From NCBI GenBank assembly GCA_044892525.1, contig CM097885.1, positions 33,110,001 to 33,174,000 of the forward strand: DNA of 64,000 bases. Reading direction: 5' to 3'. Position 1 is the first letter of the stretch. Every line of letters starts with the position of its first letter. Origin of the DNA: Schmidtea polychroa. Lineage: Eukaryota. A program made the position numbers and the translations under genes. Under the pieces are notes generated by a model, which did no database searches, was not told where the DNA came from, and was given only the letters and a program-made list of their open reading frames with translations. Below are positions 1 to 60,585 of the stretch, piece after piece.

Positions 1-590
1 TAACCATGCCATTTGACATAGTATTGTTTATCCTTACCGACCTTTTTAGTTTTCAATATTTTTTGAATTCTAAATACTTTTGGGGGAGGAATGACTTGTA
101 ATTCCTGCTCATAAAATTTCCCTTGTACAATATTATTATCATTGTCTTTGATGACATACATTACAGGATTCTGTTTAGTATTTATTTTTGAAATTACAAA
201 GACTTCATCACTCCAATTTGTATCAAAATTTTTAATAAATGGTGATGCACTAATTTTACTAATTCTAACATGGTCACCGACTTTATATTTAGGTTTTGCA
301 ATTTTTACAGATTTCTTAGAAGTCAATGATGTTTTTGATGTAATATCAACCGGTCTCAATCCATTCAGTCCTCGATGTGATGAATGATTATAACTTGTTA
401 TTATTTTCGGTAAAGCATTTACCCATTTTTTATTACCTTGATGCACGAACAATTTCTTTAATCGATCTCTCAATGTTCGATTAAATCTTTCAACATGGGC
501 AGCTTTGTATTGAGAATGTACCGAGTAGTGATTTATTTTCAGTTTATCGAGGATTTGCTTAACTTTGCTATTGTAGAATTCTTTACCTAA

Positions 591-664
<74 letters not shown>

Positions 665-1052
665 CTAAATCTGTTTGCAAGTTATTAGGATGTCCATCTT
701 TAAATAAAATATTAATTGCCTTGGACATTTCATCTGCAGATTTTGCCTTGACCGGTATTTCTCGTGCAAACCTGCTGTATACATTAATACATGTTAAAAT
801 ATATTTATTCCAATTGTTAATTTTCGAATATGGTATCATCTCCATCAAATCCATTTGCCATAAATCGTAAATACCAAATGTTTTATACGCTCTTGTTGGA
901 AATCCTTTCCGCATTGGTTTGTTCAAACTGTACGCAAGCTGATCTGATAACCACTTCTGGGTTTCTTTTTTCGAATTCGGAACTCTTTTGTTTAATTTTG
1001 CCACTCCACCGAAACCGGCTTCGTCTTCTGGGTTCGTCCAAATCTTCTCCAT
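1..1052 (-). CDS. Polinton retroviral-like (DDE) integrase with C-terminal chromodomain; putative intron 587-664; runs off the window
   Basis: Manual translation: MEKIWTNPEDEAGFGG..WQMDLMEM..YILTCINVYSRFA..LQTDLG^KEFYN..KAAHVERFNRTL..YNHSSHR..VGDHVRI..NWSDEVF..GKFYEQELQ..YYVKWHG. The intron has GT at 664-663 and AG at 588-587. Confidence 0.9.
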
Positions 1053-4560: not shown

Positions 4561-5075
4561 TTATTTAAAAAACCGGCATAAAACATACAAAATAGCAACA
4601 CGTGTTGCAAGTTTTAAATAGTTTTTAAATTTGATTTTCTGTTGATCTATTTCCTTCGCATTTCTGGCGAGTTGATTCAGCACGCCCCATCCGCCATTGG
4701 CTTCAATCCATGGCTGAAACTTTGACTTGATTATCTAGAAAAAAAATATTAATAAAATATAGATTATAAAAGTATTACTTCTTGAGACCACTGATAATAA
4801 TGTTCAGAGTCCCATAAACTTCTTTCGATTATGATCTTCATATAAGCGAACCCTACTAGTATTCGGGTCCACTTCATCTCTTCGTCGCATAGACAGTTAA
4901 AAATCCTATGAAAATAGAATTTTTTCGTTTCGAGGCATTCGGAATTGAGCACATCCTCATAATCAATATGATTTCCTTCTATAATCTTTTCGGTCCGATC
5001 GACCAGGAAACTGAGGCTTTCCATAATATTCTTATTGATAAGTTCGCTTAAAAGATTTTCCATAAAATGAGACAT
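4561..5075 (-). CDS. Bcl-2 family apoptosis regulator, two exons (5075-4779, 4734-4561)
   Basis: BH1-like EMKWTRILVGFAY in exon 1, then a 44-nt GT-AG intron at 4735-4778. Exon 2 gives BH2 FQPWIEANGGW and a hydrophobic C-terminal tail VAILYVLCRFFK*. Confidence 0.85.
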
Positions 5076-5180
5076 TTCTACAATAATTTAAAATATGATG
5101 TTTGATTTATACTAATACCGTATGAATTTGATTGGTTGATAGACTATAAATGTAAAAGAAAGGTTTTGATTTGATACACC

Positions 5181-5681
5181 ATGAAAACTATATTCATATT
5201 GCTAATTATTATAACGAGTGTGTGCTCACACAATACAACAATAACAGTGGAGTCTTTTAATAAATCAATATGTGTTTGTCCGAATACAGCCAAGTTGATG
5301 GATATTTTATATATTCTTGACAAACCAAAATGGTCAAAGCATCCAGGAAAAAGAATATCTCAAAGATTGGAGAATTTAGAAAACAGTTATGAACTATCAT
5401 TTGCATATATACAAAATATAAAAATTAAATTGATTGATCATATTGAAGTTTTCAATAACTCTATTGTTGAAAATAAAAAGAATATGAAAATTATTAATAA
5501 GAAGCATGATTATTTGTTAAAAAAGATCGAATTATTATTAAGAGAAATTCAAACAATCAAAGGATCAATAGAATATCTGAAAATCAATTCAACGTTACCA
5601 ATTTCAAACAATATTGCTGCGAATAGTAGTACATCAATATTTAGTTTACCTTTGTTAATTTTACATTATTTTATTGTTTAA
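5181..5681 (+). CDS. Secreted or membrane-anchored coiled-coil glycoprotein (Polinton cargo)
   Basis: N-terminal signal-like MKTIFILLIIITSVCS, several N-x-S/T sites, heptad-like middle, Ser/Ala-rich spacer and hydrophobic C-terminus. CCAAT and TATA motifs upstream at ~5130-5150. Confidence 0.65.
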   Translation: MKTIFILLIIITSVCSHNTTITVESFNKSICVCPNTAKLMDILYILDKPKWSKHPGKRISQRLENLENSYELSFAYIQNIKIKLIDHIEVFNNSIVENKKNMKIINKKHDYLLKKIELLLREIQTIKGSIEYLKINSTLPISNNIAANSSTSIFSLPLLILHYFIV

Positions 5682-5711
5682 ATAAATGTATGTTTTGTTG
5701 ATTTGTTTAAT

Positions 5712-6093
5712 AATACCCTTGTGAGTTGTTGAGTGTGAGCAGTACCCTTGTGAGCATTACCCTTGGGAATTTGACTTTGGGAATGACCTTGGATGAGTCA
5801 TATGACCTTGAGAATGACCTTGAATAAGTCATGGTCTTTGTTTAAATGACCCTGAAAAAAATTGACCTTGATGAGTCATATGTTTTTGTTCTACAGTTGA
5901 CCTTGAAAATTTAATGAGTCATAGGATGAGTCATGGTCTTTGTTTCAATGACCTTGATGAGTCATATGTCTTTGTTCTACAGTTGACCTTGAAAAAAATG
6001 TACTTTTAGGCTTAGAAAAATTTTTTACGCCCGGGGGGGAGGGGGGTATTGTGCCAGCGGAGTCCTGTTCTTGTGGTGCCCAATCCATCTACT
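5712..6093. repeat. Right terminal repeat of Polinton A with TGACCTTG and ATGAGTCAT arrays
   Basis: Multiple TGACCTTG and GATGAGTCAT motifs, a poly-G tract and terminal CTACT. Same architecture as 24080-24367 and 47755-48705. Confidence 0.8.
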
Positions 6094-7150
6094 AATCAAA
6101 AACACCATCATTCAAACTAGCGCAATCATTCAAAATCATACAACCCTTACTCATATCATGAATTACCTTTAATTTATTGCTCCGATCACCTCCTTGTGTG
6201 ATGGAGCATTCCCGTTTGGGTACTCAAATCAGCCTCTGGATCCTCGTCACCGAATGCGGTCACTTTTTTATGAAATTTTTGTCGTCTGTCTGGAAATAAC
6301 TCATGGCACTGATATTTGAAATGTCCTGTTCTTTTACAATGGGGACATTGAATATTGGAGCATTCAGATCTTCTATGACCTTTTTCGTGGCACGCCCAAC
6401 ATCCCAAAAATTTGATTTGTTCGGATATGATTTTGAGAAAGAAATTCCCTGGTATTATAAGGCTTACTTCTATTTATAGGTTTCAATCCATTTGAAATAG
6501 TACATCGATGTTCTCTTGTAAATTCGCCTTTGAATCTTGGATTAGCTTCTAGTTCTCTAATTGATCTGTTATCATAACCATTATCTTCTTAACAACATCA
6601 GCATAGCGTTGGGTTTTATTCATTGAAGCTACATCAGCATGAAATACATTAATTTCTTTTGAAACTTGATCGTGTTTCTATAATCTGTCTTTCATTTCAT
6701 CAAATGATTTTAAATCTTGCATTTTGAGATTTTTTCAACTTCTTTATTTTCAAGCGAATTGAATAGCAAAAATTTCTTTAGTTCTTCTTCCTCAAGTTTA
6801 TGCTTCAAAATATTTTTTGCAATTTTCTCAATTTTTGAGCAGAATTCTTAGGCAACATCATTTCCTTCATGATAATTTAACGCTTCGTTAAAATGATAGA
6901 TAAGACTTCTGTTCTTAGCAAAAGCGTTTCATAATCTTTCTGTATAATGCAGAGTTTCATTTGTCAACTCATATTTCTTAGTTGAATTGATTGATAGAAA
7001 AGCTTTACTTCTGTCTTCATCGACAATATTTGTCATCTCGAAGAATCGTTTCGTTTCTAAGATGAAATCTTCCACATCTGAATCCATATAATATGTTTCT
7101 GGTGGTTTGATAAAATTTTCAATCGTGGTAGCCATATTAGCCACAGAGCT
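6094..7150 (-). pseudogene. Degenerate Gypsy gag with two CCHC zinc knuckles
   Basis: CWACHEKGHRRSEC and CPHCKRTGHFKYQC. The N-terminus IKPPETY..DVEDFILETKRFFE is related to the gag at 42905-44002. Stops and frameshifts present; truncated at the Polinton end. Confidence 0.8.
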
Positions 7151-16360: not shown

Positions 16361-18517
16361 ATGAACAATTTGAACAATCAAATAAATTTGGACAGCTTGG
16401 GCTTTTATTACAATTTGTGTAATAAAAACTTTAAATGAAAAACGGCATTAACTTCTCACAAAAAAATCAAAAGACCATTTAATTAAAGGAAATCTTTTAA
16501 ATGATACCAACTCTAAACTTTGTAACAAGTGTAAAGAGCGATATTTACTTTCAGGATTTGATAAACATTATTCAAACTGTATTGGACTTAAAAAAATTAA
16601 AGAAGTATTTTCTTGTTTAATATGTAATAAAAAATTCACAAAAAATATTTTACAAAAGTATAATATTCCACCCGAAGAATACAAAACTTGTTTGGCAAAA
16701 GGAATATATCCCTATGATTATATTGACTCATTTAATAGATATCAAGAAATAGAATTACCATCACATGAAAATTTCTATTCAATATTAAATCTATCAAATA
16801 CAACTGAAGAAGAAGATGCAAGAGCTAGAAAAATGTGGTAACTATTTAATTGTCAAACATGAGGAGATTATACTGATATATACTTAAGTTTAGATGTATA
16901 TATTTTAGCAGACTGTTTCGAAAAGTTTGTAAAAGCTTTTCCATTAAAAGCTTATAATTATATAACCCTACCATCTTTAGCTTGGGATATATTATTATAT
17001 AGCATGAATGATAGTATAGAATTACTATCAGATGTTAACATGTTCAACACGATAAAAACTAATATTTGTGGAGGTATTAGTTCAGTAATGGGTGAACGAT
17101 ACATAAAAGCACTCAATTACAAATATCTTTACAAAACTTTATTCAAAGATACAGATGAACCATATGTTGAAATTAAAACACAAGAATTTAATATGGTAAT
17201 AGAATGTTTAAACAACCCAGCCCACATTTTATACATTGACGCGACCGCCCTATATGCAGGAATAATAACTCAACATCTTCCAATTGGAAATTTTGAATGG
17301 ATGGAAATACCTAAAACTAAACAGGGTAAAGAAGAATTAATGAATAAAATATTAAATACCCCCAAAGACTCAAACATAGGATATTTTATAGAATGTGATT
17401 TAAAATATCCAGAGCGCATAAAAGCTAACACAAAATATTTTCCATTTGCCCCAATAAAAAGAAAAATGGAAAAAGAAGAACTACTAGCTTGGCAACTTGA
17501 AAAAGAAAGGGGGTTTAGTAAGAAGCTAATATGTGACCAAACAGATAGGACATATTACCTTATACATTATAGAATGTTTAAATTCTATGTTAAACATGGA
17601 ATGAAAGTTAAAGATGTTTACAACATTATAAAATTTAAACAAGCCCCATTTATGAAGGGGTATATTGATCACAATATTAAAATGAGAAATGTATGCAAAA
17701 GAGCAAAAGATGAATTCGGGGACACAATGTATAAACTTTTAAATAATTCAGTCTTTGGTAAAACAATGGAAAACATTGATAAATATACAAAGATTGAATT
17801 ATTAACCAATAACCCCAAAGACTTCACAAGATATAACAGAATGTTGTCAAAACCAACATTTAAAAATGCAGAAATATTTTCAACTAGTTTAGCCGCAACA
17901 GAAATAGGAAATTACATAAAAACTTATAATAAACCAATGATTATATAGGATATAGTATTTTGGAGTTATCAAAACTTCAAATGTATGAAACCTATTATGA
18001 TACATTACAACCACACTTTCAAGACAGAATATCTTTACACTTTATGGACACAGATTCAATGCTTTTAAAGGTTTATTCTTCAGATATATACAAGGAAATA
18101 TCTGAAAATGAAACCTTGAATAAATTAATAAATAATAGTGGAGAATTATTTAGTTTCAAAGATGAGAAACCAAATAATTCAATATTTGAGGCAATATTTA
18201 TTACGGCTAAACAATATTCCCTTTTATTAGAGAGAGGAGAAGAAAATAGAAATAAGGGAATACAAAAATGGGTAGCTAAAAAAATTACACATCAAAACTT
18301 TACAGATTGTTTAAAACCACAATCTGAGATACAAATAGAAATAGTTCATCAGATTAAATCTGATAAACATAACATCTTTTTAGAAGAAGCACACAAAGTT
18401 TCACTTGACAATTATGACGATAAAAGGGTTATTTTGTCAGATGGAATTGGAAATGATATGATTCCATATATAAAAAACTTGTTTAGGATTATTATTTTCA
18501 TCAAGTCTAATATCTAG
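16361..18517 (+). pseudogene. Protein-primed family B DNA polymerase (pPolB), disrupted, exonuclease region deleted
   Basis: KGIYPYDY, LDVYILADCFEKF, GGISSV, YIDATALY, KLLNNSVFGKTMEN, LELSKLQMY, FMDTDS, YDDKR. Decayed Cys/His finger motifs at the N-terminus. In-frame stops at ~16850-16862 and 17946. Confidence 0.92.
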
Positions 18518-18897
18518 ACGCGTTCCGGGTCCAGTATAGTTGTTTTAAATAAGTGTCTTTCACCTGGATATTTTTCAGTAGTAAAAGGTTTTAATAATGA
18601 TGATGTTAATTTTGAAGATTGTAAATCACCACCCATGTGTGGAACCAGGTCGCCTCCTTGTTTCTCAAAAGCAAATCTGCTTGAAGGATTGAGCGCCAAC
18701 AAGAGAATATTACCTGAAGATGCTTTTAAATTATTTAATGAAATTTTATTATTAGAATCTGTTTCACCATTCGCCTTAGACTCATAAAGACGTGATCAAA
18801 TTATGTGTTTTTTAGTTTTAATATGACTTGCTTTATGATGTCTTGTAACTTCACAATGACAAGTTTTACATGTCCAATACTGTTTAGGTAGAGACAT
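18514..18897 (-). pseudogene. Small C2H2 zinc-finger ORF joined to a GG-motif core-protein fragment
   Basis: MSLPKQYWTCKTCHCEVTRHHKASHIKTKKH, then a stop, then ..KQGGDLVPHMGGDL.. (adenain-type motifs). Probably a deletion junction. Confidence 0.5.
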
Positions 18898-18924
18898 TTT
18901 AAAAAATTAATTTTTGTTTTCTTA

Positions 18925-20215
18925 TTAATCACCTCTAACATTCTCAATTATTGAAATCTTTCCACCATATAACTTCATTTCTATTTTCTTTTCTTCAAGA
19001 ATTTTTGTATATACTTTTGCTTTAAAATTAGAATCCTTTTTTATATGAAGAGTAACATCAACATTATTTATAGCCAATTTATCATCTTGATCTGAAACAT
19101 TTATGCAGAATATTGAATACAAATTTTTAAAATCTTTTAAAGATGTTTGTGATTCTGTTCCAAAATCTCGACATTTTTGAATATAATTTAGATAAGGGAA
19201 TATATTTTCATTGTTTTCTATATCAAACTCCATTCTATTTATTGGATAATAACTATTATTCAATTGAATTTGAATTGATTTTAAACAATCATAATCCAAT
19301 CTTTTGAATAAACAAGTCATTATTTTTTTGAAATGATGCATCTGTTTCTTTGAACCCAATTAAAATATATCTTGGAGGATATGTTAAATTTGCTACTTTT
19401 ATAGAGTATGTTGAGTCCTCTCTCATATCAAATTCACTACAGATTCTATTTAAATAATTTACATTTATTGACTTGTTGGAATTTAATCTTTCTAGTAATT
19501 TGATTTCAGCATGTGGATTTAAAATCCATTCAGGTATATGTAATTCGATTGTTGTTAATTTTAATTTAGCTTTTGTATCTTTATCTCCAAAGAACAACAC
19601 TTTATCATCTATTGCCCTATTACAAACTAATTCTATAAAAACATTATGAAGTACACGATTATAACTTTGAAGGAATCCAAATAAATGTTTCAATTCGAAA
19701 TAACCTTCAAATTTTTTAGACTTATAAAGTTCAAATCTTTTATAATAAGCATAATTTACATCTAAACCATCTTTATCTAAATCACCTTTGTTAATATCTG
19801 GGATCCAACCTGTTAATTCACCATATTCACTTTTATAATCATGAGTAGCTAAAATAAAACTTAACATTGTAGAATATACACCCGGATACAATATACTTTC
19901 AATTTCCGATGGTCCTAATTTTAATCTCATGTTGGAGAATAAATTTGGAAAGAAATTATTTTCTAGGGTAATATCTTTGTTTGCTTCAATCTCTAATTCA
20001 ATTTTATAATATAATCTTGCATTACAAATATCTATAGGGTTTGCTGTTTGAAAAGATTGAAAAACTATATCACCTGAACTATTTAAATTTGCAATAGAAC
20101 CTGCGGTTGGGGAAATTTTAAGTATGTCATTTTTCCTGATTTCATGAGTAAACTCTTTATTATAATCAAGATTTAGTTTATTTTTTTCTGGAATTTCAAG
20201 ATTTATGTTGTTCAT
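18925..20215 (-). pseudogene. Polinton major capsid protein (double jelly-roll), one frameshift near 19290
   Basis: LNSSGDIVF, LENNFFPNLFS, ELKHLFGFLQSYNRVL, IELHIP, PRYILIGF, then LNNSYYP..YSIFCINVSDQ in the second frame. Confidence 0.85.
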
Positions 20216-29292: not shown

Positions 29293-30105
29293 TTAAATTG
29301 TATTTTGAAACCACAAGTGATTAAGGAACTCATTCAAGTTTATTCTGTCCTCAGGGTTAAAAGCTAAACATTTGTCAATCAGGTTTCTGGCATTTTCTGA
29401 ACATTTGTAATATGGGATAGAAGTTATATTCTCATAATCATTCTCGGTATTAAAAAGTAATCTTTTTTCAATAGAAATATAAAGTAAACATCCAATTTCG
29501 AAAACCATATTTTTCTTGATATCGTATGTGTTTTCTTTCACTGCCTCATAGCTTGAATATCCGAGAGTACCAATGCATCCACGACATTTAGGATTTTCTT
29601 TTAATTTCTCATAAACGGAACTTTCGAAGTCTATAAATTTGATATTGTAAGTTCTACTATTTATCATAATATTTTTATGTTTTATATCTAAATGATAAAC
29701 ACCTTTACTGATTAATTTCTCTAAACCTTTGATTACATTTGTTATAACCTTTCTCATCATAATTTCACTTATTACATTTGTATTAATAAACTCTAGCAAG
29801 TCCATCCAATCTCCATTGAGGTTTTCCATAATAATTGCAAATTCTGTCTCAGACTGAATACAATCTAAAACTTTCGGACTGAAATTTTCTTTTTCAATAA
29901 AATCTAGAAATAATAATTCTTTTGGTATTGGAAACAGATAATTTTTATTTCGAATAAACAAATAATCTTCAGATTTTGAGAAACATTTAATGACAACAGT
30001 TTTATGATCTAGATTTTTGTTCGATTTGTTTTCAGCTATATAAATTATGCTCTTTTCGGTTTCTTGGACTATTGAAATTAATTTATAATTTTTATTATTA
30101 ATCAT
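29293..30105 (-). CDS. Intronless atypical Ser/Thr kinase, Pim-like
   Basis: VVIK, IPKEL, MDLLEFI, HLDIKHKNIM, FIDFE, GTLGY, IGCLLY, LIDKCLAFNPEDR. No Gly-rich loop; DFE replaces DFG and SYE replaces APE. Confidence 0.85.
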   Translation of the reverse strand: MINNKNYKLISIVQETEKSIIYIAENKSNKNLDHKTVVIKCFSKSEDYLFIRNKNYLFPIPKELLFLDFIEKENFSPKVLDCIQSETEFAIIMENLNGDWMDLLEFINTNVISEIMMRKVITNVIKGLEKLISKGVYHLDIKHKNIMINSRTYNIKFIDFESSVYEKLKENPKCRGCIGTLGYSSYEAVKENTYDIKKNMVFEIGCLLYISIEKRLLFNTENDYENITSIPYYKCSENARNLIDKCLAFNPEDRINLNEFLNHLWFQNTI

Positions 30106-31632
30106 TTTTTGTTTAAGTTAATGAATTAGATTTTAATTTTTAAATTGAAATAATATTTTAAAATAATTTATTTAATGTACATTTGATTGGATAAAATATG
30201 AACAATTTATTATTTATTGTTTTTAGTTTTTGTGAATTTTGCAATATATTGCTTATTGATAAGACGTAATTATAAACTTGGGTCCTCAAAATATGCATTG
30301 TTATATTATGAAAAAAATTAAAATATTTAATACTTTTTCTGATAAATCCGAAGCTAGATACACTCAAAGAACAGGAATATGTAAATTTATGATAAAGGAG
30401 TCTGAGAAAGTGTTGGATAATACTTTTTATGAAAATTATCAGGAACACGAATTTAAGTTTTAGTTCTATATATTTGAACATAAAACTAAGAAACATATTC
30501 TGGAGTAAAACATAACGAAAAAATAAACAAGTGGAATAGAATTTTTGACACCAACAATCCAGAAGATCAAATATTCTATTTATTTCCGGTTAATTTGAAA
30601 TGTTTTTTCTAAACTTCAATCGACCTTCAAATTCGTCAAACTGGTCATCTTAAGTTAGATGAGGTCAAGGAACATAAATATTTCTTGATTTATTTTAAGA
30701 AGTCTTAAATTATGTATATACAAAATATAAAATAAAATATCTTTTTTAAAGTAAAAATATCAATTTTTATATTAAAATATTTATATTAAAAATTGGGCAC
30801 GAAAAGTTTGAAGAAAACACCTTTTAAAACTAATTTGACACTGAAATGTTTCAAACACAAAACATTGATGGAGAACTGAGTGTTTTTTTAAGTTAATCGA
30901 AAATAAAAGTGTAATTTTATTCTGATACATAAATTATTAATACTATATACTAATTTAAAATTGGGTATTTTTTGAATATTAATTAATATAATAATTTACA
31001 ATAACTTTTCAGACACACTGATAGAAACTAGAAAAATAAATAAAATCCCTAAGAGTAAGTACTCTTACACATGTTTCGTTTTTAAATTTTATATTCTGAT
31101 CTTTTTTTCAATTGAGGGAGAATATTGAGCATCCCTAGCTTTTATAATTTCTTCCAAAATATTTTATTGTAGTGATCCATTAATGAATAATTCTACTACT
31201 TATTTTCACCCATTTGAATTATAAATTTATCATAGAATTATTTCCTCATTTAATGAAGATTCTTATCACCTGCGAATTATATTGTTAATTTTATCTCTGT
31301 TTAACGAATATTTTACACTTTATCGATTTTTCACTGCTTACCATTTTAGAATAAGATTTTTTTTCAAAGTTTGGGATAATTTGACTGATTCAATAATAAA
31401 TTTGATGGAGTTAATTGGTTTAATTATATATACTCCGAGTTTATCCGACAGGATGTTTTGCCCCCTATGGGTATTGGTCATAAGGGTATTGGTCGTAAGG
31501 GTACTAGTCGTAAAGGTATTGGTGTGTTTTAATGATTTTATTTAAGCAAATTTTGTTGTTTAAGGCATGTCTTTATTTGTCTTATATGTCTTTAATTTTA
31601 TAATCTATATTTTAATAATATTTATTTTCTAG

Positions 31633-31812
31633 ATAATCAAGTCCAAGTTTACACCATGGATAAAAGCCAATGGCGGATGGGGTAGATTGAACCAACTCGC
31701 CCGAAATGCCAAAGAAATTGATGAATACAAAAGAAAGTTTAAAAACTACATTAAACTTGCAAAAGGTGTTGCTATTTTGTATATTATTAGTAAATTTTTT
31801 AATAAAAATTAA
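31633..31812 (+). pseudogene. Bcl-2-like gene exon 2 (exon 1 lost)
   Basis: TTTTCTAG^IIKSKFTPWIKANGGWGRLNQLARNAKEIDEYKRKFKNYIKLAKGVAILYII; same acceptor position as copy 1. Confidence 0.8.
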
Positions 31813-37783: not shown

Positions 37784-40752
37784 ATGAAAAAATATTATGG
37801 CCATAAATTCTATGGATTCAAATACTATTTATGTCCATCATGTCAGACTTCCCAACAAATAAAATATTCTGAATTTTACAACACCCATAGTAAACATCTT
37901 AATCAGTTTATTATAAAGAAACTTACCCTCTTTAAACAGATAAATAAAAATGTAAATAAAAATGTTAATAAAAATGTAAATAAAAACCTAAATAATGATG
38001 CGATTAGCGCAGAACATAAAAATGTTAATAAAAATGTTAATAAAAATGTAAATAAAAAGCTAAATAATGATGCGATTAGCGCAGAACATAAAAATGTAAA
38101 TAATAATGTAAATAAAAATGTGAATATCAAAAATGTAAATAATGATGCAATTAGCGCAGAACATAAAAATGTAAATAAAAATGTAAATGATAATAAAAAT
38201 ATAAATAATGATGCGATTAACGCAGAACATATAATTAAAAATGTAAATAATAATCTAAATAAAAATGTGAATATCAAAAATGTAAATAATACACAGCATG
38301 CTGTTATTCAAGATTTTTGTATACCATCTAAAGTTATTAAAGTTAATGGTGGTGATGAAATAAATAACAAAATAAATATCCAAATTAATAATCGAATGAA
38401 TAAGCAAATAGGTGGGTCAATACGCGGTTCAGTTGATATAGATGACGAACCAGAAATAGAATTAGATTTTAAGGGGGCTAGAAAAAATCTAAGGTTTGAC
38501 GTTGAGAAAAACGACTTAGTTCAAATATCGTTAACATCGAAAATTATAGAAAAGTTAATAGCTGAAATGAAAGGAATGGAGTCAGTTAAAATACAGTTCA
38601 CTGTTCTCATACAATTTGAGAAAGATGGCGAAATCCGAGATAATTTTTTCTCTAATAATGCAGAGGTTTTTCTGATAATTTTCTATTAGAGGGCATCACA
38701 TATTTAGGAAGTGGATGGCGGGTTGTTAGGATAAAAGAAATTGATTTTATAATAAATAAATATAAATATATAAATAGATTAGCTGGTCATAGTTATATCC
38801 CCACCCCAGCGGCTTTAAAGTCTAAAAAAGCAATTGTAAATATACAGAACACAGATGATGATATGTGTTTTATCTATAGTATTCTAGCCCTCTTAAAGCG
38901 TAATGTTATACACAGAAATAAGCACCGTGTTACTGCTTATGAGAGTTATTTAGATGAGATCAATTTCGACCCTATTAGTGATTGCCCGATGAAAACAGTG
39001 AACTGAACTTAGCTATTAACGTTTTAACTTATAGAACGACACCATCTAAGTCTATTGAACATCAAGATATAAATTATATTCCCCATCACCCACATCTAGA
39101 TATTAATCACCGCTCTAATGTTATAGGTGGTGAACCCATATATTTATTATTATTAGAAGACGGTGGTAATTTTCATTACACCGCAGTTTTTGATCTTCAA
39201 AAACTTATGAATTGCCATCGTAGTAATTCATGTAATATAGAAATTTGCGTAAAATGGTGTCCACATTACCTTAATGGCTTTAGATATAATAAGATATTTA
39301 ATATCCTTGTAGATCTATGTAGTAAGAACCAAATAGGTACTACATTGTAGATCCTACCTAAAGACAAAAATTTAATTTTCAAAGATTTTTCAAAAAGAAT
39401 AACCCCGCTATTCGTGATATATGCAGATTTTGAGGCAATCTTGCCTGAAGACATCACCCACCACCAAAACCATTTGCAAATAACAGCAGGCATGTTATTA
39501 ATTAATAATTATAATAACACTAGATTTTATTATGAGTTTGTTGGTGATGACTGTGTGTTGTCTTTCTTGCGTAAGGTGGAGGAAATTGCGGTCAAAATTG
39601 TCCTGCCATATTACGAAATTAATGGGAAAAAGCCCATGCAAACCTTGTCTTTCACTGAAGAACGTGTCTTTCGAGAATCCAGAACCTGTTATCTGTGTAA
39701 AAAATTCATTAAAGATAGAGTTAGGGATCATTGTCACTTTACAGGCAAGTATCTTGGTGCTGCCTGTAGGAACTATAATGTTTCGCGACAAATTCAGAAA
39801 CAGCTACCTGTTGTTTTTCACAATTTGAAGGGGTATGATTTACATCATATTTTAAAGTACGGTTTGAATAATTTTCCTTCTTAGGAATTAAATATTATTC
39901 CGACCACTACTGAGAAATTCATCTCTCTCATCGCGTACATTAACAAATTGCCTGTTCGTTTTATTGACAGCATGCAGTTTGTTAATTCATCTTTAGCAAA
40001 AGCAGTTAAGACTCTTTCCGATCTGCCTTTAACTTCTTCTGTTTTTGATGGCGCAATTGTTCGAGCCAAAGGTATCTTTCCATATGAGTTCGCTACATCG
40101 CTTGAGGTTCTGGAATCGACTCTTGAACTACCTCCGATCTGGGATTCTGTGTCTAATGATGAGTATGCATTAGCCCAAGTTATTTGGACTCAGCAAAATT
40201 GCAACAACATGTTAGATTACAAGTTAACTTACCTGAAGTTAGACGTGTTTCTCCTCGCAGACTATTTCCAACAATTCCGTGAAAAGGCCATTGCTTACAA
40301 TGGTCTGGAGCCTCTTAATTTCTATGGCATTCCCGATATGTCATGGGCCTCAGCGCTTATGACATTAACGGAACCCATTGAACTTTTGAAGGACATGGAA
40401 ATGTTTAATTTCTATGAAGGAGGGATACGGGGTGGGTTATCATTTGTTAACAAACATTATGTTGTAAGTTCTGAAGACACAGAACTCTTGTATATTGACA
40501 TAAATAACTTATATGGTTGGGCCTTAAGCCAAAAGCTTCCGTATGCCGACTTTGAATAGGTGTATGATGATCTTGATTCTGTCTTGAATGAATGTATGAA
40601 TGAGGATATTGAAAATCTTCCATATGGGTATACTATGGAAGTGGATATCGATATCCCTCAGTGTGTGCATAATTTTTTGAATGATTTTCCGATTGCTCCG
40701 GAAAAGATGTGCCCGCCAGATTCGAAAGTTGAGAAGCTGATGCTCACGCATT
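37784..40752 (+). pseudogene. Second protein-primed DNA polymerase B (Polinton), frameshifted and 3'-truncated
   Basis: GSGW, YIPTP..KKAIVNIQNTDDDMCF, IYADFEAIL, CYLC..VRDHCHFTGKYLGAAC (endonuclease VII-like), VVFHNLKGYD, RFIDSMQF, KGIFPYEF, RGGLSFV, YIDINNLYG. N-terminal NKNV and NNDAISAEH repeats. Confidence 0.92.
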
Positions 40753-42878
40753 GACCGAAAATTATACCTTCATTATTTACTTTTATTTCTTGGTCCCTAT
40801 TTTCTATGGCCAATATTTTAGTTTTAGTTTTATCTACCTTGGCGTTTTCATGAACTGTTTGGCACTGACTACATGAAGTACAGTCTTTTCTTGATAGGGC
40901 ATCTGCGTTAGCATGCAATTCTTCTTTTCTGTATTCTAATTTGATATCTAGCCCACTTAAATAGTTAATCCATGTTTGGAATTGTGCTGTAATTGGCTTT
41001 TTTGTATTTATCAAAAAGGTTCTTAAAGTAAATCTTTTTCCATATAGATAGTGTTTGAAATGCTGAGTAAAATGATAGATTGCAAGCAATTCCTTTCGCG
41101 TAATGCAGTAACCGATTTCGTGCTTATTCATTGTCTTTGATCCATATGCAATAACTTGTTCTTGTCCATTACTACTCAACTGCGAAAGCACTCCCCCAAT
41201 CGTATCGAAACTAGCATCTGTATCTAAAATAAAGGTTTTTCGTAAATCTGGAAATCCTAGTACTGGGGTAAACGTTAACTCTTTCTTTAGCGTGTTGAAA
41301 TTTGTTTCACATTCTTCAGTCCATATAAGTTTATCTTTGTTAGACCCACATAACCTTTCTAATGGTCTTGCATACTTGGCGTAATCTTTAACAAATTTGC
41401 AAATTTGCAAAATAGCAAAATTTGCAATTTGTTAAGCCTAGAAAGCTTCTTAAACGTTTAATACATTTTGGTTTTTCATATTCTTGCATTGCTTTTATCT
41501 TTTCATAATCTGTCTTTATACCATTTTTATTTATAATGTGTCCTAAAGGTTTTATTTCTAGTTTGTTAAAACAACATTTTTCTAAGCTTATTTTCAAACC
41601 AGCTTCTTGAATCTTTCGAAAAACTCTTTCTAGTCTTTTTTAATGTTCGATTTCATTGTCTGCAAATATAAGGATATCGTCTAAATAGACAATTGCTTCT
41701 CTCCAATTAAGATCACCCAAAACTTGAGTCATTAATTTTTGAAAAGTTGCTGGGGCAGCTGCAATTCCAAAAGGCATTCGGTTAAAACAATATTGACCAT
41801 CTTTTGTTGAAAATGCAGTCTTTATTTTTGATTGCTCTTCTAATTCCACTTGATAATAGGCATTACCAAGATCGATAGTGCAAAATATCTGTGATCCATT
41901 TAGGATATCCATCATCTCTTCAATATTTGGTATTGGAAATCGAGGTCTCTCCGTAATTGCATTTAGTGCCCGAAAATCCAAACATATTCTAATATCTGAT
42001 TTATTCTTTTTTAACACACATACCAATGGGCTATTCCACACCGAGTCACATTTTTTTATAATTCCTGCTTCTTCCATGTCTTTTAGCATGTCTTGTATTT
42101 TGTGAGCAATATGAATCGGCTGACGTTTAGGATTAATTGTCACTGGGCTACATCTAGTAACTATCTTATGTTTAATTAACTGTGTTTTTCCTACATCCCA
42201 TTTATTTTTCATGAATATATCCGAAAATTCTTTAAGTAATTTATTAATCGTTGGGTCGATAATTCCTTTCAAATTGTTTTCTTCTAAATTCATTAATTGA
42301 TTTTTTAATTTTACTTTAGTTACTGCCTGTAATTTAATATCAAAACAATTCATCATTTCTACGCCTGCAATTACGCTCGGGTTAATCTTATTTGCCACAA
42401 AGAATCTTATTACCAATTCTAATCCCGAAATTCTCACTTTTAGTAATATTGTTCCTATGATTTTAAGTGTGCTCTCGTTTGCACATGTAATCATAATATT
42501 GGATTCCCCTATTTTATCACGCATCTTTAATTTACTAACAACATCTTCGCTAATCACGTTTATTCTAGCCCCGGTATCCAAAAGACAATCAACTTTTATT
42601 TTATTTTCCAGCCAAATACCTACACTAGGTCTGCCATTCATTCTTTCGTAAACGAATTTAGGTGCAAAAGGTCTTTCTTTATTTTCATTAACTTTATTAT
42701 TAATTATATCGATACTCATAATCTTATCAATTTTGTTATTAATTTCATAAAAACTATATTCAAAATAATTTTCAAAGTCAAAACATTCACAATCATTCAT
42801 AATTACATCATTAATTTTTAAATCATCTTTAAATTCATTCATTACGGAAATCTTGAAATCACAAGCATTCAAATTCAA
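40753..42878 (-). pseudogene. Gypsy pol (aspartic protease, RT, RNase H)
   Basis: ORFs 41640-42878, 41388-41597 and the homologous part of 40658-41410 carry the motifs listed for the element. Confidence 0.92.
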
Positions 42879-42904
42879 ACATTCTGTGTCAACAAGATAC
42901 TTAC

Positions 42905-43958
42905 TTAAACCAAATTTATGGCTCCTAGCAACTCCCTTGAAACTGGAGCCTCCCCTTTTAGCTGTTCGAAATCTTTTTGCATGTCATCCTGTTGAATCAG
43001 CTCTCTTTCCTCGTATTCGTAGTCGTATATCGCATTGCATTGTCTTCGATGTGGTCCTCTGTCTGAAGATTGGTTTCTGCTTTGATATTGTCCTCTGGAT
43101 CCAAATTGTTTTTGATTTCTATCATAATTTCTTCCGTTGTAATATGCTTCTGTTTTAACTGAATTTCTTCTGATGTCCCAACATTGATACTTGAAATGAC
43201 CATTTATGGAACATTGAGAGCATTTTACGTTTGGGCATTCTGCTTGAATATGTCCTTGCTCTCCACACGCCCAACATCTCTGCAGTTTAAATCGCCTGGT
43301 CCTGTTCTTCCAGTCACTTTTATTTGGCATATTGAAGTTCACGGCCTCATTGGTTCTAGAGTTAGAAAATATTGGTGTCTTATTCTGTTGGTACAACTGA
43401 GTTTTTCTCGGACTTTTGACTGTCTCCGCATATGATTTATTTTCATGTAGAGATGCTAAGGATTGTTCACTTGAAAGCTCTTTTTGAATTTCTTCCATTT
43501 TTGATATCACTTCCTTGGCCTTATCTACTGATTTAACTTCTATTAATTTCAATTCTTTTTTTGTTTCCATATCTTCCATTGCATTCTACATTAAAAATAA
43601 CATTAATGCCGGTTTTGTTAATTTGTGTCGAAGAACATTGTCGACGAGCTTTTCCACTTTATTGAAAAATTCGGTGCACGAGTCATTTCCTTTTCGATAT
43701 CTTAAAGCTGCGTCTAGATCCATGGCTAGATTTTTACTTGGCTCGAACGCTTTTCTTAATCTTTCTTCATAGCCTCAATAATCGCTCTGTACTTCTCCAT
43801 ATTTCTGGATCAACTCTACCGACAGAAAGGCCTTGGTAACAATTTCTTGAGTTTCTTGCGGTTGTTGAGTAAATTCGAAAAATCTCTTCAATTCCAAAAT
43901 AAAAATTTCTAAATAACCATTTGGCAGCAATTGATTAGGTGGCTTTAATATAGTTCTG
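42905..43958 (-). pseudogene. Gypsy gag
   Basis: CWACGEQGHIQAEC and CSQCSINGHFKYQC; frameshifts upstream. Confidence 0.85.
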
Positions 43959-51922: not shown

Positions 51923-52330
51923 ATGAAAAACTTTCAAGTTAATAACTTCAAAGTCAGCGTGAACATTAATATCCAGACAAACCTGTAAATACATTCAAGA
52001 AAATATTTAGGAAGCAAATATTTAAAAGATTTATAAACAACACTACCAGGGAGTCAACCTTTTTCGTTAAATTGGCAAACTTGTCATAAGCGGATCACAT
52101 CAGCTATCACATCAGTATCAGAATAAGCAAATCCAAAAAAGTATCATAAGTAAAAATTTATTGCATTCCTATACAGATCATTCATGACTCTCAAAAACCA
52201 AAGAAATATCATCAACATACTTTTTGTACACAATTGATTTAGTTAAATTGTACAATGGAAAATATTTTTACAAACTAGACATAAAAATATAGACTATTGT
52301 TGAAAGCAATGGGGAACAAATAGCAACACG
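51923..52330 (+). pseudogene. Decayed second TBP-like gene (insertion site of the tandem array; continues after 59483)
   Basis: MKNFQVNNFKVSVNINIQTNL..., VNLFR*IGKLVISGS and ISSTYFLYTIDLVKLY resemble TBP repeat motifs. Frameshifts and stops present. Confidence 0.45.
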
Positions 52331-52369
52331 AAGCAAATATTTAAAAGATTTTATTGAAGATTTATTGAA

Positions 52370-52870
52370 TTGGCGAAACATGAAGGAAGAATAATGGAGA
52401 TATTGCACCTAAGCAGAATGAACAGTGACAGGGGCTTGGCCGAGTATGGCGATGGTGGGAGGAGAATCCATCATGATGTATCAAGAATGATGCTGGATGC
52501 GGTGCAGAGGTTCTTTCCAGTGAGGCTCAACGTCTTGGAGGACCTAGAGCGGTTTGAAGAGCTGCTGGGAAACCTCATCCTGAATTTCAAGGAACAGAAG
52601 AGGGAAGGCGAGTTGAACAACGGAATGTTGTATCACCAACTGCTGAAGAAGCTGCCAGAGACCATGCTGATTCAGTGGTCACGCCATTGTGATTTGGGGA
52701 GAGAAGGAAAGGTACAAACGCTAGCCGAATGGATCAAAACGGAAGCCGATAGGCATCGAAAAGCCTTGAATATATTGTTTGGGGAGAGAACTCCAGGGAG
52801 TAGGAAGGATGTGGGGACATTGAAAAAGTTCACAAACATCATGGAGAGAAAACCAATTGCAAGAAATCAA
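52370..52870 (+). pseudogene. BEL/Pao gag fragment (repeated at +1788, +3576, +5364)
   Basis: GC-richer segment; LERFEELLGNLI..GELNNGMLYHQLLKKLPETMLIQWSR..VQTLAEWIKTEA is typical of BEL/Pao gag. Confidence 0.7.
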
Positions 52871-53239
52871 GCTCCAAGATGTTCGCATTTGGCTCAGAGT
52901 TATTTTGCGGTAACAAAAATGTTAAATGGCGGTAATCGACAAAATTTCCTTGAGAATAACGAAATAGATTCCATAGATGTAATAAATCCTTCCGATTCAA
53001 AAAATGATTCAGATATCGAAAATAATGAAGATGAAAATGACGGAGAAATGATTATTCATGATGTAGATAATTCTGAAGAAATGGTTTTTTAGAAATTATT
53101 GATTCGATGGATTGTTATAATTAAATTAGGTTTTAAATGGAATGTTGTTTTACCGGATTAATTGGATTTTTTTGGTAGATTTGTTTAAAATTGGTTTTAA
53201 ATTGAAATCTGTGGAAATTATGATGAATTTCATTCTCAG

Positions 53240-53365
53240 AATGTTCGGCTCTATTGGTTATTGCAATGCATGTGATAAAGTTATTCCAGCATTTGAGTTG
53301 GTAATGCGAGCGGGAAGTTTTGTGTATCATTTGGAATGTTTTGGTTGTCAAGAATGTAATCATAG
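53240..53365 (+). pseudogene. LMO: LIM-only (LMO1/3-like) second LIM domain exon fragment (x4)
   Basis: TTCTCAG^[43 protein letters not shown] versus LMO RLFG..G.CAACSKLIPAFEMVMRA.DNVYHLDCFACQLCNQR. Confidence 0.85.
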
Positions 53366-53461
53366 AGGAGCTCATGGATTTATTGTTGTGGTTGATGTTA
53401 CCGATCAAGATTCGTTTAACAATGTTAAAAATTGGCTTAATGAAATCGATAGATATGCAAA
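53364..53461 (+). pseudogene. RAB1: Rab1 GTPase fragment (x4)
   Basis: [32 protein letters not shown] versus Rab1 [32 protein letters not shown]. Confidence 0.88.
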
Positions 53462-53784
53462 AGGAAAAGTTCCCGATAAAATGAGTGAGACGAGTTCAGC
53501 TACGAGATTGTTTAATATTACTTAATGTACTGGAGGTGTTATGATTGGTATGATCCCTGATTGTCGATCTCAAGTACGTCGCGCACGAATGGAAGCAGCT
53601 CGATTTAATTCTGAAATTGCTCATAAAATGACTTGCGATATAATATGTTTGTCTATGTTTGTCTATGTCTATGTTTATATTGATCAATTCAATTCCCAAT
53701 CGGCTGAGAGGCGACCATTAGGATGTTAAATGATGGCATTATCTTCTGATCTTGAACTGGACAAAATGTTATTCAAAACTGATC
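53462..53784 (+). pseudogene. PSMA6: 20S proteasome alpha-6 (alpha1) subunit fragment (x4)
   Basis: [61 protein letters not shown] versus [58 protein letters not shown]..VYKCD. Confidence 0.85.
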
Positions 53785-56700
53785 GACGTGGCCCTGTAGA
53801 GGCGAACAATAAAATTGTTATTCGTTCCTTTGGACTTATTCATGGACTTTTTCGTTAAATTGGCAAATTTGTCATAAGCGGATCACATCAGCTATCACAT
53901 CAGTATCAGAATAAGCAAATCCAAAAAAGTATCATAAGTAAAAATTTATTGCATTCCTATACAGATCATTCATGACTCTCAAAAACCAAAGAAATATCAT
54001 CAACATACTTTTTGTACACAATTGATTTAGTTAAATTGTACAATGGAAAATATTTTTACAAACTAGACATAAAAATATAGACTATTGTTGAAAGCAATGG
54101 GGAACAAATAGCAACACGAAGCAAATATTTAAAAGATTTTATTGAAGATTTATTGAATTGGCGAAACATGAAGGAAGAATAATGGAGATATTGCACCTAA
54201 GCAGAATGAACAGTGACAGGGGCTTGGCCGAGTATGGCGATGGTGGGAGGAGAATCCATCATGATGTATCAAGAATGATGCTGGATGCGGTGCAGAGGTT
54301 CTTTCCAGTGAGGCTCAACGTCTTGGAGGACCTAGAGCGGTTTGAAGAGCTGCTGGGAAACCTCATCCTGAATTTCAAGGAACAGAAGAGGGAAGGCGAG
54401 TTGAACAACGGAATGTTGTATCACCAACTGCTGAAGAAGCTGCCAGAGACCATGCTGATTCAGTGGTCACGCCATTGTGATTTGGGGAGAGAAGGAAAGG
54501 TACAAACGCTAGCCGAATGGATCAAAACGGAAGCCGATAGGCATCGAAAAGCCTTGAATATATTGTTTGGGGAGAGAACTCCAGGGAGTAGGAAGGATGT
54601 GGGGACATTGAAAAAGTTCACAAACATCATGGAGAGAAAACCAATTGCAAGAAATCAAGCTCCAAGATGTTCGCATTTGGCTCAGAGTTATTTTGCGGTA
54701 ACAAAAATGTTAAATGGCGGTAATCGACAAAATTTCCTTGAGAATAACGAAATAGATTCCATAGATGTAATAAATCCTTCCGATTCAAAAAATGATTCAG
54801 ATATCGAAAATAATGAAGATGAAAATGACGGAGAAATGATTATTCATGATGTAGATAATTCTGAAGAAATGGTTTTTTAGAAATTATTGATTCGATGGAT
54901 TGTTATAATTAAATTAGGTTTTAAATGGAATGTTGTTTTACCGGATTAATTGGATTTTTTTGGTAGATTTGTTTAAAATTGGTTTTAAATTGAAATCTGT
55001 GGAAATTATGATGAATTTCATTCTCAGAATGTTCGGCTCTATTGGTTATTGCAATGCATGTGATAAAGTTATTCCAGCATTTGAGTTGGTAATGCGAGCG
55101 GGAAGTTTTGTGTATCATTTGGAATGTTTTGGTTGTCAAGAATGTAATCATAGAGGAGCTCATGGATTTATTGTTGTGGTTGATGTTACCGATCAAGATT
55201 CGTTTAACAATGTTAAAAATTGGCTTAATGAAATCGATAGATATGCAAAAGGAAAAGTTCCCGATAAAATGAGTGAGACGAGTTCAGCTACGAGATTGTT
55301 TAATATTACTTAATGTACTGGAGGTGTTATGATTGGTATGATCCCTGATTGTCGATCTCAAGTACGTCGCGCACGAATGGAAGCAGCTCGATTTAATTCT
55401 GAAATTGCTCATAAAATGACTTGCGATATAATATGTTTGTCTATGTTTGTCTATGTCTATGTTTATATTGATCAATTCAATTCCCAATCGGCTGAGAGGC
55501 GACCATTAGGATGTTAAATGATGGCATTATCTTCTGATCTTGAACTGGACAAAATGTTATTCAAAACTGATCGACGTGGCCCTGTAGAGGCGAACAATAA
55601 AATTGTTATTCGTTCCTTTGGACTTATTCATGGACTTTTTCGTTAAATTGGCAAATTTGTCATAAGCGGATCACATCAGCTATCACATCAGTATCAGAAT
55701 AAGCAAATCCAAAAAAGTATCATAAGTAAAAATTTATTGCATTCCTATACAGATCATTCATGACTCTCAAAAACCAAAGAAATATCATCAACATACTTTT
55801 TGTACACAATTGATTTAGTTAAATTGTACAATGGAAAATATTTTTACAAACTAGACATAAAAATATAGACTATTGTTGAAAGCAATGGGGAACAAATAGC
55901 AACACGAAGCAAATATTTAAAAGATTTTATTGAAGATTTATTGAATTGGCGAAACATGAAGGAAGAATAATGGAGATATTGCACCTAAGCAGAATGAACA
56001 GTGACAGGGGCTTGGCCGAGTATGGCGATGGTGGGAGGAGAATCCATCATGATGTATCAAGAATGATGCTGGATGCGGTGCAGAGGTTCTTTCCAGTGAG
56101 GCTCAACGTCTTGGAGGACCTAGAGCGGTTTGAAGAGCTGCTGGGAAACCTCATCCTGAATTTCAAGGAACAGAAGAGGGAAGGCGAGTTGAACAACGGA
56201 ATGTTGTATCACCAACTGCTGAAGAAGCTGCCAGAGACCATGCTGATTCAGTGGTCACGCCATTGTGATTTGGGGAGAGAAGGAAAGGTACAAACGCTAG
56301 CCGAATGGATCAAAACGGAAGCCGATAGGCATCGAAAAGCCTTGAATATATTGTTTGGGGAGAGAACTCCAGGGAGTAGGAAGGATGTGGGGACATTGAA
56401 AAAGTTCACAAACATCATGGAGAGAAAACCAATTGCAAGAAATCAAGCTCCAAGATGTTCGCATTTGGCTCAGAGTTATTTTGCGGTAACAAAAATGTTA
56501 AATGGCGGTAATCGACAAAATTTCCTTGAGAATAACGAAATAGATTCCATAGATGTAATAAATCCTTCCGATTCAAAAAATGATTCAGATATCGAAAATA
56601 ATGAAGATGAAAATGACGGAGAAATGATTATTCATGATGTAGATAATTCTGAAGAAATGGTTTTTTAGAAATTATTGATTCGATGGATTGTTATAATTAA

Positions 56701-59730: not shown

Positions 59731-60585
59731 TTATAATATTTGACTGCAAAAAAAGTGATAAATTCTTTGGTTTAAGGATGTTTTCTGAAACCACAAATGA
59801 TTGAGGAATTCATTCAAGTTTATTCTGTCCGCAGGGTTAAAAGCTAAACATTTGTCAATCAGGTTTCTGGCATTTTCTGAACATTTGTAATATGGGATAG
59901 AAGTAATATTCTCATAATCATTCTTGGTATTAAAAAGTAATCTTTTTTCAATAGAAATATAAAGTAAACATCCAATTTCGAAAACCATATTTTTCTTGAT
60001 ATCGTATGTGTTTTCTTTCACTGCCTCATAGCTTGAATATCCGAGAGTGCCAACAAATCCACAATGTTTAGGATTTTCTTTTAATTTCTCATAAACGGAA
60101 CTTTCGAAGTCTATAAATTTGATATTGTAAGTTCTACTATTTATCATAATATTTCTATGTTTTATATCTAAATGATAAACACCTTTACTGATTAATTTTT
60201 CTAAACCTTTGATTACATTTGTTATAACCTTTCTCATCATAATTTCACTTATTACATTTGTTTGAATGAACTCATGCAAGTCCATCCAATCTCCATTGAG
60301 GTTTTCCATAATAATTGCAAATTCTATCCCAGACTGAACATAATCTAAAACTTTTGGACTGAGATTTTCTTTTTCAATAAAATCTAGAAATAATAATTCT
60401 TTTGGTATTGGAAACGGATAATTTTGATTTCGAAGAAACAAATAATTTTCAGATTTTGAGAAACATTTAATGACAACAGTTTTATGATCTAGATTTTTGT
60501 TCGATTTGTTTTCAGCTATATAAATTATGCTCTTTACGGTTTCTTGGATTATTGAAATTAATTTATAATTTTTATTATTAATCAT
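59731..60585 (-). CDS. Intronless atypical Ser/Thr kinase, Pim-like (paralog of 29293-30105)
   Basis: Same motifs (HLDIKHRNIM, DFE, GTLGYSSYE), highly similar sequence and a shared upstream region to ~60800. Confidence 0.85.
   Translation of the reverse strand: MINNKNYKLISIIQETVKSIIYIAENKSNKNLDHKTVVIKCFSKSENYLFLRNQNYPFPIPKELLFLDFIEKENLSPKVLDYVQSGIEFAIIMENLNGDWMDLHEFIQTNVISEIMMRKVITNVIKGLEKLISKGVYHLDIKHRNIMINSRTYNIKFIDFESSVYEKLKENPKHCGFVGTLGYSSYEAVKENTYDIKKNMVFEIGCLLYISIEKRLLFNTKNDYENITSIPYYKCSENARNLIDKCLAFNPADRINLNEFLNHLWFQKTSLNQRIYHFFCSQIL

Follow-up and report, generated by a model that had tools for sequence, protein, structure and literature searches.

A planarian Polinton carries a spliced, selected Bcl-2-family cargo gene, probably captured from host bcl2-1

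Introduction

Can a virus-like element resident in a planarian chromosome carry a cell-death gene that has to be spliced before it can be read as one protein? The question is raised by a 64,000-nucleotide stretch of Schmidtea polychroa DNA (assembly GCA_044892525.1, contig CM097885.1, positions 33,110,001 to 33,174,000 of the forward strand; herein the window, in whose own numbering positions are given), where the original prediction, made from the letters alone, placed an intron-containing, anti-apoptotic Bcl-2 homologue inside a Polinton. Bcl2 homologues are described in adintoviruses, or animal Polintons (Starrett et al. 2021, PMC8502044), anti-apoptotic cargo is mentioned again in PMC11071296, a BCL2-like domain is reported in planarian Burro LTR retrotransposons (PMC6431247), and spliceosomal introns are reported in eupolintoviral proviruses of dinoflagellates (PMC12166617). 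On the host side, RNAi against Smed-bcl2-1 causes total lysis of planarians (PMC6970515), with further background in PMC7586133 and PMC3566077.

The gene and its intron

Read from the window sequence, the minus strand holds a two-exon Bcl-2-family gene with its ATG at 5075 and its stop at 4563-4561. Exon 1 (4779-5075; 99 codons, phase 0) encodes putative helices 1-5 and the start of helix 6, including a BH1-like KWTR at about 4863-4874; it is followed by a 44-nt, phase 0, GT-AG spliceosomal intron (4735-4778, GTAATA..TTCTAG) and by exon 2 (4561-4734; 57 codons at 4734-4564 plus the stop), which contains the BH2 motif WIEANGGW at about 4687-4710 and a hydrophobic tail with a basic end at about 4567-4617. 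The predicted KWTRILVGFAY, WIEANGGW and hydrophobic tail are all present where they had been placed, and without splicing the frame hits a stop 4 codons into the intron. Upstream of the ATG, at 5106-5135 on the same strand, lie a CCAAT box (-60) and a TATAAA box (-36). All six intron-type copies examined have the pair (CCAAT at -60 to -67, TATAAA at -33 to -37), the intronless sister gene described below has CCAAT at -57, and the host bcl2-1 orthologue has neither box within 300 nt upstream of its ATG; judged by these motifs, the pair is a probable host Pol II promoter. A 166-aa gene (5181-5681, plus strand) is arranged head-to-head with it; this neighbor has a signal-like N-terminus, a coiled coil and a hydrophobic C-terminus and is conserved at 84-98% across the copies mapped.

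Exon 1 aligns ungapped to residues 40-126 of bcl2-1 of Schmidtea mediterranea (ACW83059.1; 24% identity, E 2e-9) and exon 2, likewise ungapped, to residues 127-178 (29% identity, E 6e-9). Because the exons match consecutive residues, removing exactly 4735-4778 restores colinearity with an independent protein. Across the genome, a degenerate pattern spanning the exon/exon junction, counted by gap length, matched 1,236 times with a gap of 30-60 nt, 1,218 of these having GT..AG, and gave 0 matches genome-wide both with a gap of 0-20 nt and as a reversed-pattern control. Among 59 distinct copies, a set biased towards copies near the window, the insert is 30-94 nt long, mostly 44 or 45, and 46 copies have full exons (99-101 and 57-59 codons). 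Further, one contig (depth 18) of run X6, which is RNA by guess and has loose ends resembling poly-A, skips exactly 4735-4778; 14 of its 102 letters do not match the window, and hence it derives from another copy and not from the window copy. No skip of 4735-4778 was found in run X1 or in the DNA-like runs X2 (2,671 contigs) and X5 (276 contigs); X1, from the same study as X6 and also RNA by guess, contains contigs that start or end exactly at 4734 and 4779, a weak hint. The segment is confirmed as a U2-type spliceosomal intron, with GT..AG ends and free length, present in DNA and skipped in one probable-RNA contig. The intron was thus correctly predicted, and the proposed check for RNA across the junction found its one spliced contig, in a related copy.

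It could be objected that a genome as AT-rich and as full of microsatellites as this one would produce such a segment by chance, as an insertion in a dead gene. Against this, GT..AG is retained in nearly all of the junctions counted even though insert length and frame vary, the skip in the X6 contig is exact, the exons fit a cDNA-derived protein without gaps, and exon 2 is under selection (see below); the objection is already largely refuted, and we give it next to no weight.

A diverged second copy of exon 2 at 31633-31812 had also been put forward, and it does keep the acceptor, the frame and W..NGGW as described, but it proved to be a truncated relic of another subfamily (31596-31812, plus strand), in which an open exon 2 follows the acceptor and what is left of the intron, its 3' part. 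An exon-1 tblastn of window positions 5201-64000 gave no match under E 5. With donor and exon 1 absent, its conservation reflects divergence between subfamilies and not a working gene at that place.

Selection was assessed as dN/dS between five subfamily representatives. Exon 1 gave values of 0.03-0.16 in nine of ten pairs (one was saturated), and exon 2 gave 0.11-0.51 in six pairs, five of them significant at p <0.02; near-identical copies compared with the window had a pooled pS of 0.069 and pN of 0.012, these copies being non-independent. Both exons are under purifying selection.

Membership of the Bcl-2 family

Single exons of the window gene had no significant Pfam match. With the intron read through (as X), members of two sibling subfamilies pass the curated cut-off of 31.4 bits for PF00452 (Bcl-2), P0006 with 34.4 bits and P0007 with 34.6, and P0005, which is near-identical to the window gene, falls below it at 24.2 bits (E 5e-5). 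A five-row family profile matches Bcl-xL at E 1.7e-9 and retrieves 115 proteins at E <=0.001 from 1.84 billion, its best named database match being S. mediterranea bcl2-1 (ACW83059.1 / FJ807655.1), which is essential and pro-survival. The Atlas feature match for homologue P0002 was Bcl-2 at 0.93, and the Atlas structure search with a poor model of the same protein returned unrelated bacterial helical proteins. A homologue search with P0003 alone had no match, BFVD had none under E 0.001, and the IMG/VR and JGI metagenome contigs held no related loci. The colinearity with bcl2-1 over both exons and the profile match to Bcl-xL bear out the proposed homology.

The original prediction had suggested that the change from the canonical NWGR to KWTR in BH1 might alter BH3 binding. 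The window protein keeps Trp and Arg and replaces Asn and Gly; the host bcl2-1 orthologue has RWSR and the intronless sister CWSK, where Lys replaces the Arg, so that both also lack Asn and Gly. Given that host bcl2-1 reads RWSR, NWGR is not obligatory in this clade; KWTR is not supported as a viral peculiarity, and the concern over BH3 binding is weakened, all the more because the Arg is kept; by comparison of the motifs, the odd BH1 was probably inherited from the host gene and is not a viral invention. The BH2 motif W..xGGW is present, with WIEANGGW aligned to Pfam positions 86-100. The C-terminal tail, aligned with the host tail, reaches a best 17-residue hydropathy of 1.46 (host 1.39), and the window copy has a private charged residue there that occurs in one of 44 distinct copies. 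Death-promoting BH3 helices have a small residue at a position of helix 2 where the window protein has Val.

The suggested structural check came out in two ways. The intronless sister model folds as Bcl-2 (pLDDT 66; Foldseek E 3e-4, TM about 0.5), and its VIA-align search (Z 10.4, rmsd 3.3, 113 aligned) had Bcl-2-fold proteins in all of the top 27 rows. The window-family model, built with the 15-residue intron peptide left in and from a 17-row alignment (pLDDT 57, pTM 0.37), had no clear fold match: its best Foldseek match was at E 0.053, the rows listed being Bcl-2 family, and its VIA-align matches listed were only generic helical proteins. The intron peptide and the shallow alignment probably spoiled this model.

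The Polinton and its copies

An 18,333-bp Polinton, which extends leftwards beyond the window start and ends in terminal inverted repeats (AGTAG..CTACT) flanked by a 6-bp target-site duplication, holds the gene close to its right end. The right terminal inverted repeat, ending CTACT, occupies 5629-6093, and the duplication at 6094-6099 (plus strand) is repeated at the left end. In the window part of the element are the integrase (3-1118, minus), a basic pVII-like gene (within 3-2829, minus), the packaging ATPase (1666-2292, minus) and a TBP-like gene (2392-2829, plus). A gene map, built with sister-element proteins that were named by their motifs, gave the full order as terminal inverted repeat, RING, PolB, protease, major capsid, small gene, penton, integrase, pVII-like, ATPase, TBP-like, two small genes, acidic gene, Bcl-2, membrane-type gene and terminal inverted repeat. 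Pfam supports the integrase and ATPase of the window element, and PolB and capsid of other window copies. The window element is damaged, with PolB and one small gene frameshifted and an insertion interrupting the penton gene. Among six further copies mapped, the order is complete in four, the TBP/ATPase block is missing from a fifth, and the sixth is a truncated relic; the 6-bp duplication is clear in the window element and in three of five other elements, and not clearly visible in the remaining two. The predicted Polinton context is hence upheld: with PolB, integrase, ATPase, protease and jelly-roll capsid genes between inverted repeats and a duplication, the element is a Polinton/Maverick (eupolintovirus, adintovirus). 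By the junction-pattern count, its family has >1,200 copies in the genome.

Several other features of the element and its surroundings were recorded. A RING finger gene at the far end of the window element (L068:8789-9232, minus; zf-C3HC4_3, 32.6 bits) occurs in that element and two close copies and is absent from four other elements checked, which makes it variable cargo; its RING is of the kind found at IAP C-termini, and it is possibly a second anti-death gene of the element. The integrase gene has an (ATT)n insert at window positions of about 590-670 (minus), at QTDLG/K and flanked by a TTAG|GT repeat, which recurs in L070, L076, L079, L086 and the window copies near 35 kb and 50 kb; it is 66-150 nt long in the seven copies examined, in frame without a stop in six of them, and absent from the sister lineage. 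This insert is probably another intron specific to the lineage, one that arose where an AG|GT site had been duplicated. Elsewhere in the window, two intronless Ser/Thr kinase genes (29293-30105 and 59731-60585, minus; 92% identical) lie amid Polinton debris and may be the cargo of some other element. A 1,788-bp unit that contains a chimeric LIM/Ras-like ORF is repeated in tandem about four times (52059-59483; 99.9% identity), either because it was amplified recently or through an error of assembly. More distant Polintons have left fragments of PolB and capsid genes at 17004-20215 and 37784-40808, and a Gypsy-type gag/pol fragment occurs at 41640-43579.

Origin of the gene and of its intron

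A genome scan with PF00452, in which 150 of 909 candidates were scored, returned host genes, domains in very long frames, the intron-type Polinton family and an intronless family. The Bcl-2 domains in frames of 1,000-3,000 aa (L118 and many scan matches) are likely Burro-type LTR retrotransposons. Among the host genes, L042/L065, which has peptidase-like genes on its flanks, shares 89% identity over exon 1 with ACW83059.1, the protein named bcl2-1 in PMC4993586 (supplement file 2, row 38); its exon 2 lies 2.97 kb downstream, across a 2.97-kb intron that follows GGW, and it has no intron at the viral intron site. Seven near-identical tandem copies of another, NWGR-bearing host Bcl-2 gene (L031-L037; G000:C4, about 89.9-90.8 Mb) have no intron after GGW.

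Trees join both viral types with the bcl2-1 orthologue, with support of 89/91 and 85/91 in trees of 15 of the 20 rows, which left out Burro, two fragments or long rows and two close copies, and of 81/85 in a 42-row tree that took in 28 of 114 database proteins; none of these branches was starred, and with all 20 rows the same branch is weak (46/85). AU tests reject a grouping of the viral genes with either NWGR-bearing host gene (p 0.013 and 0.033, the groups having been named after earlier trees were seen) and give p 0.39 both ways for one capture versus two. The phylogeny that had been proposed as a check thus places the viral genes with bcl2-1, the window protein being on a long branch, and the trees and alignments suggest that the Polinton gene was probably captured from host bcl2-1.

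The intronless family belongs to a sister Polinton, where it has the same TBP-like and orfX genes as neighbors. Its 144-aa Bcl-2 gene is found at L061:7730-8164 (G000:C1, about 247.54 Mb) and other places, and it accounts for 62 matches among the 150 scored candidates, only about a dozen of them near-identical. A supposed single element with both Bcl-2 types (L138/L139) was rejected, as terminal-repeat DNA lies between them. An exon ending in GGW|GT is found in six of nine host Bcl-2-like exons examined, including bcl2-1, and in no viral gene. Three older, decayed relics (L124, L126, L148), 36-47% identical to exon 1, have the acceptor at the same site, and two of them have a 41-nt GT-AG intron; their shared acceptor site implies that the viral intron predates the current subfamilies. 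Given an intronless sister lineage and a host intron that lies elsewhere, the viral intron was probably gained in the element. The simplest reading of these gene structures is probably that the gene was captured without the host intron and that a new intron then arose 16 codons upstream in one lineage.

Discussion

Our results indicate that a planarian Polinton carries a real, selected, spliced Bcl-2-family cargo gene. Bcl-2 cargo of Polintons is already known, as annotation only; the present analysis adds a splice contig, a count of the copies, the connection with bcl2-1 and an intronless sister. Compared with bcl2-1, the viral gene shares both exons colinear and ungapped, a non-canonical BH1, the YxxWSxE stretch, BH2 and a short tail anchor, but its protein is only 24-29% identical, its N-terminus is about 28 residues shorter, and the two genes differ in intron position, the host intron after GGW being absent from the viral gene and the viral site being intronless in the host. 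In the adintoviruses (PMC8502044), including that of lancelet (A0A5H3CWZ2), an accessory Bcl-2 likewise lies beside PolB, integrase, capsid genes and ATPase, while the planarian element has an identifiable, functionally characterized donor and a lineage-specific intron; planarian names or splicing terms were not found in the adintovirus text or the portion of its supplement searched, and the lancelet Bcl-2 model matched weakly (E 0.4). Our literature search, with most subscription papers, Repbase and part of the adintovirus supplement outside its scope, found no paper on planarian Polinton Bcl-2. Five short, unnamed Bcl-2-like proteins on contigs of <=14 kb (P0016, P0017, P0024, P0034, P0047) branch beside the bcl2-1 clade and could be carried by related elements of other flatworms.

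Burro provides another case of Bcl-2 on a mobile element within this animal group, but there the domain lies inside a polyprotein, its BH1 is NRDK and it sits on a very long branch of uncertain position, with no sign of a common origin. The viral pro-survival mimics ASFV A179L, EBV BHRF1, MHV68 M11, KSHV Bcl-2 and myxoma M11L have the same fold as the intronless sister (Z 7.2-9.9) and resemble the planarian protein in their short N-terminus and tail anchor. Their BH3 binding has been tested, whereas the planarian gene is known here from sequence, is endogenous in >1,200 copies and is split by an intron. Dinoflagellate eupolintoviral proviruses also contain spliceosomal introns inside Polinton-like elements; those are introner transposons (PMC12166617), whereas the planarian intron is short and AT-rich or (ATT)n, and an unsystematic look revealed no introner hallmarks.

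The reading that we favor, and consider reasonably probable, is that the gene is a bcl2-1-derived, host-spliced, tail-anchored Polinton cargo whose product binds BH3 helices and delays the death of the replicating cell. Specifically, host Pol II would transcribe the gene from the CCAAT/TATA promoter, the host spliceosome would remove the 44-nt intron, and the C-terminal hydrophobic helix would anchor the product by its tail, likely in the mitochondrial or ER membrane. A groove with the kept BH1 Arg, which in solved complexes pairs with the BH3 Asp (PMC7022251), would sequester BH3 helices of Bak/Bax-type proteins, as Bcl-xL does, and apoptosis of the element-replicating cell would likely be blocked. 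Capture would have proceeded via an intronless, probably mRNA-derived form, with one Polinton lineage later gaining its intron upstream of the lost host intron. Anti-apoptotic activity is likely on the strength of the relationship to bcl2-1 only; the low identity to that gene, the long branch and the absent BH1 Gly count against it, and function may have shifted since capture.

The same features invite the idea, which we hold to be unlikely though the most credible of the competing ones, of a spliced Bcl-2-fold protein acting outside apoptosis and dampening innate signaling or autophagy, by analogy with poxviral A52/N1-type and herpesviral M11-type proteins. Out-of-groove, non-apoptotic functions are known for the fold (PMC7022251), and M11 and A52 are among the fold matches of the sister. 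Against it, the protein retains its BH2 motif and tail anchor along with the Trp and Arg of BH1, the pro-survival donor shows the same loss of Gly, and cellular Bcl-xL, Bcl-2 and Bak outrank A52 among those matches. A product that antagonizes host bcl2-1 or promotes death late in infection, releasing particles, appears improbable: hydropathy and sequence cannot separate pro- from anti-apoptotic members, and the near-tied fold matches of the sister include Bak and Bok, but helix 2 is without the canonical BH3 ligand motif, the nearest host gene is pro-survival, the RNA-type contigs come from ordinary runs, and a killer gene in >1,200 copies would presumably be costly. We assign an equally small chance to the gene being a passenger now, selected in ancestral active elements and at present transcribed by leakage without protein function, a view about how the gene is used today rather than why it was once selected. 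Broken copies are numerous, and a single contig provides the RNA evidence; the excess of pS over pN among the near-identical, non-independent copies argues the other way.

The anti-apoptotic cargo that we favor also admits a bolder extension, which we think unlikely, namely that normal planarian tissue transcribes, splices and translates the >1,200 proviral copies of captured bcl2-1 and that these copies lift the cell-death threshold of the host. In that case selfish elements, namely two Polinton lineages and the Burro retrotransposons, would share in the control of tissue turnover and of stem-cell survival in an animal that regenerates. The gained intron would then be the sign of a Polinton lineage that has adapted to being expressed from the chromosome as host genes are.

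Annotation by open reading frames alone misses such cargo, and the databases contain only exon-1 read-through fragments of the intron-type family (P0001, P0002, P0009). The trio of a host gene with an intron after BH2, an intronless viral gene and a viral gene with a new intron offers a clean case of intron loss and gain in virus-host transfer. Further, the probable donor can be traced to a gene whose RNAi phenotype is published and lethal, and RNAi is routine in this animal group, so that the role of a Polinton accessory gene can be tested directly.
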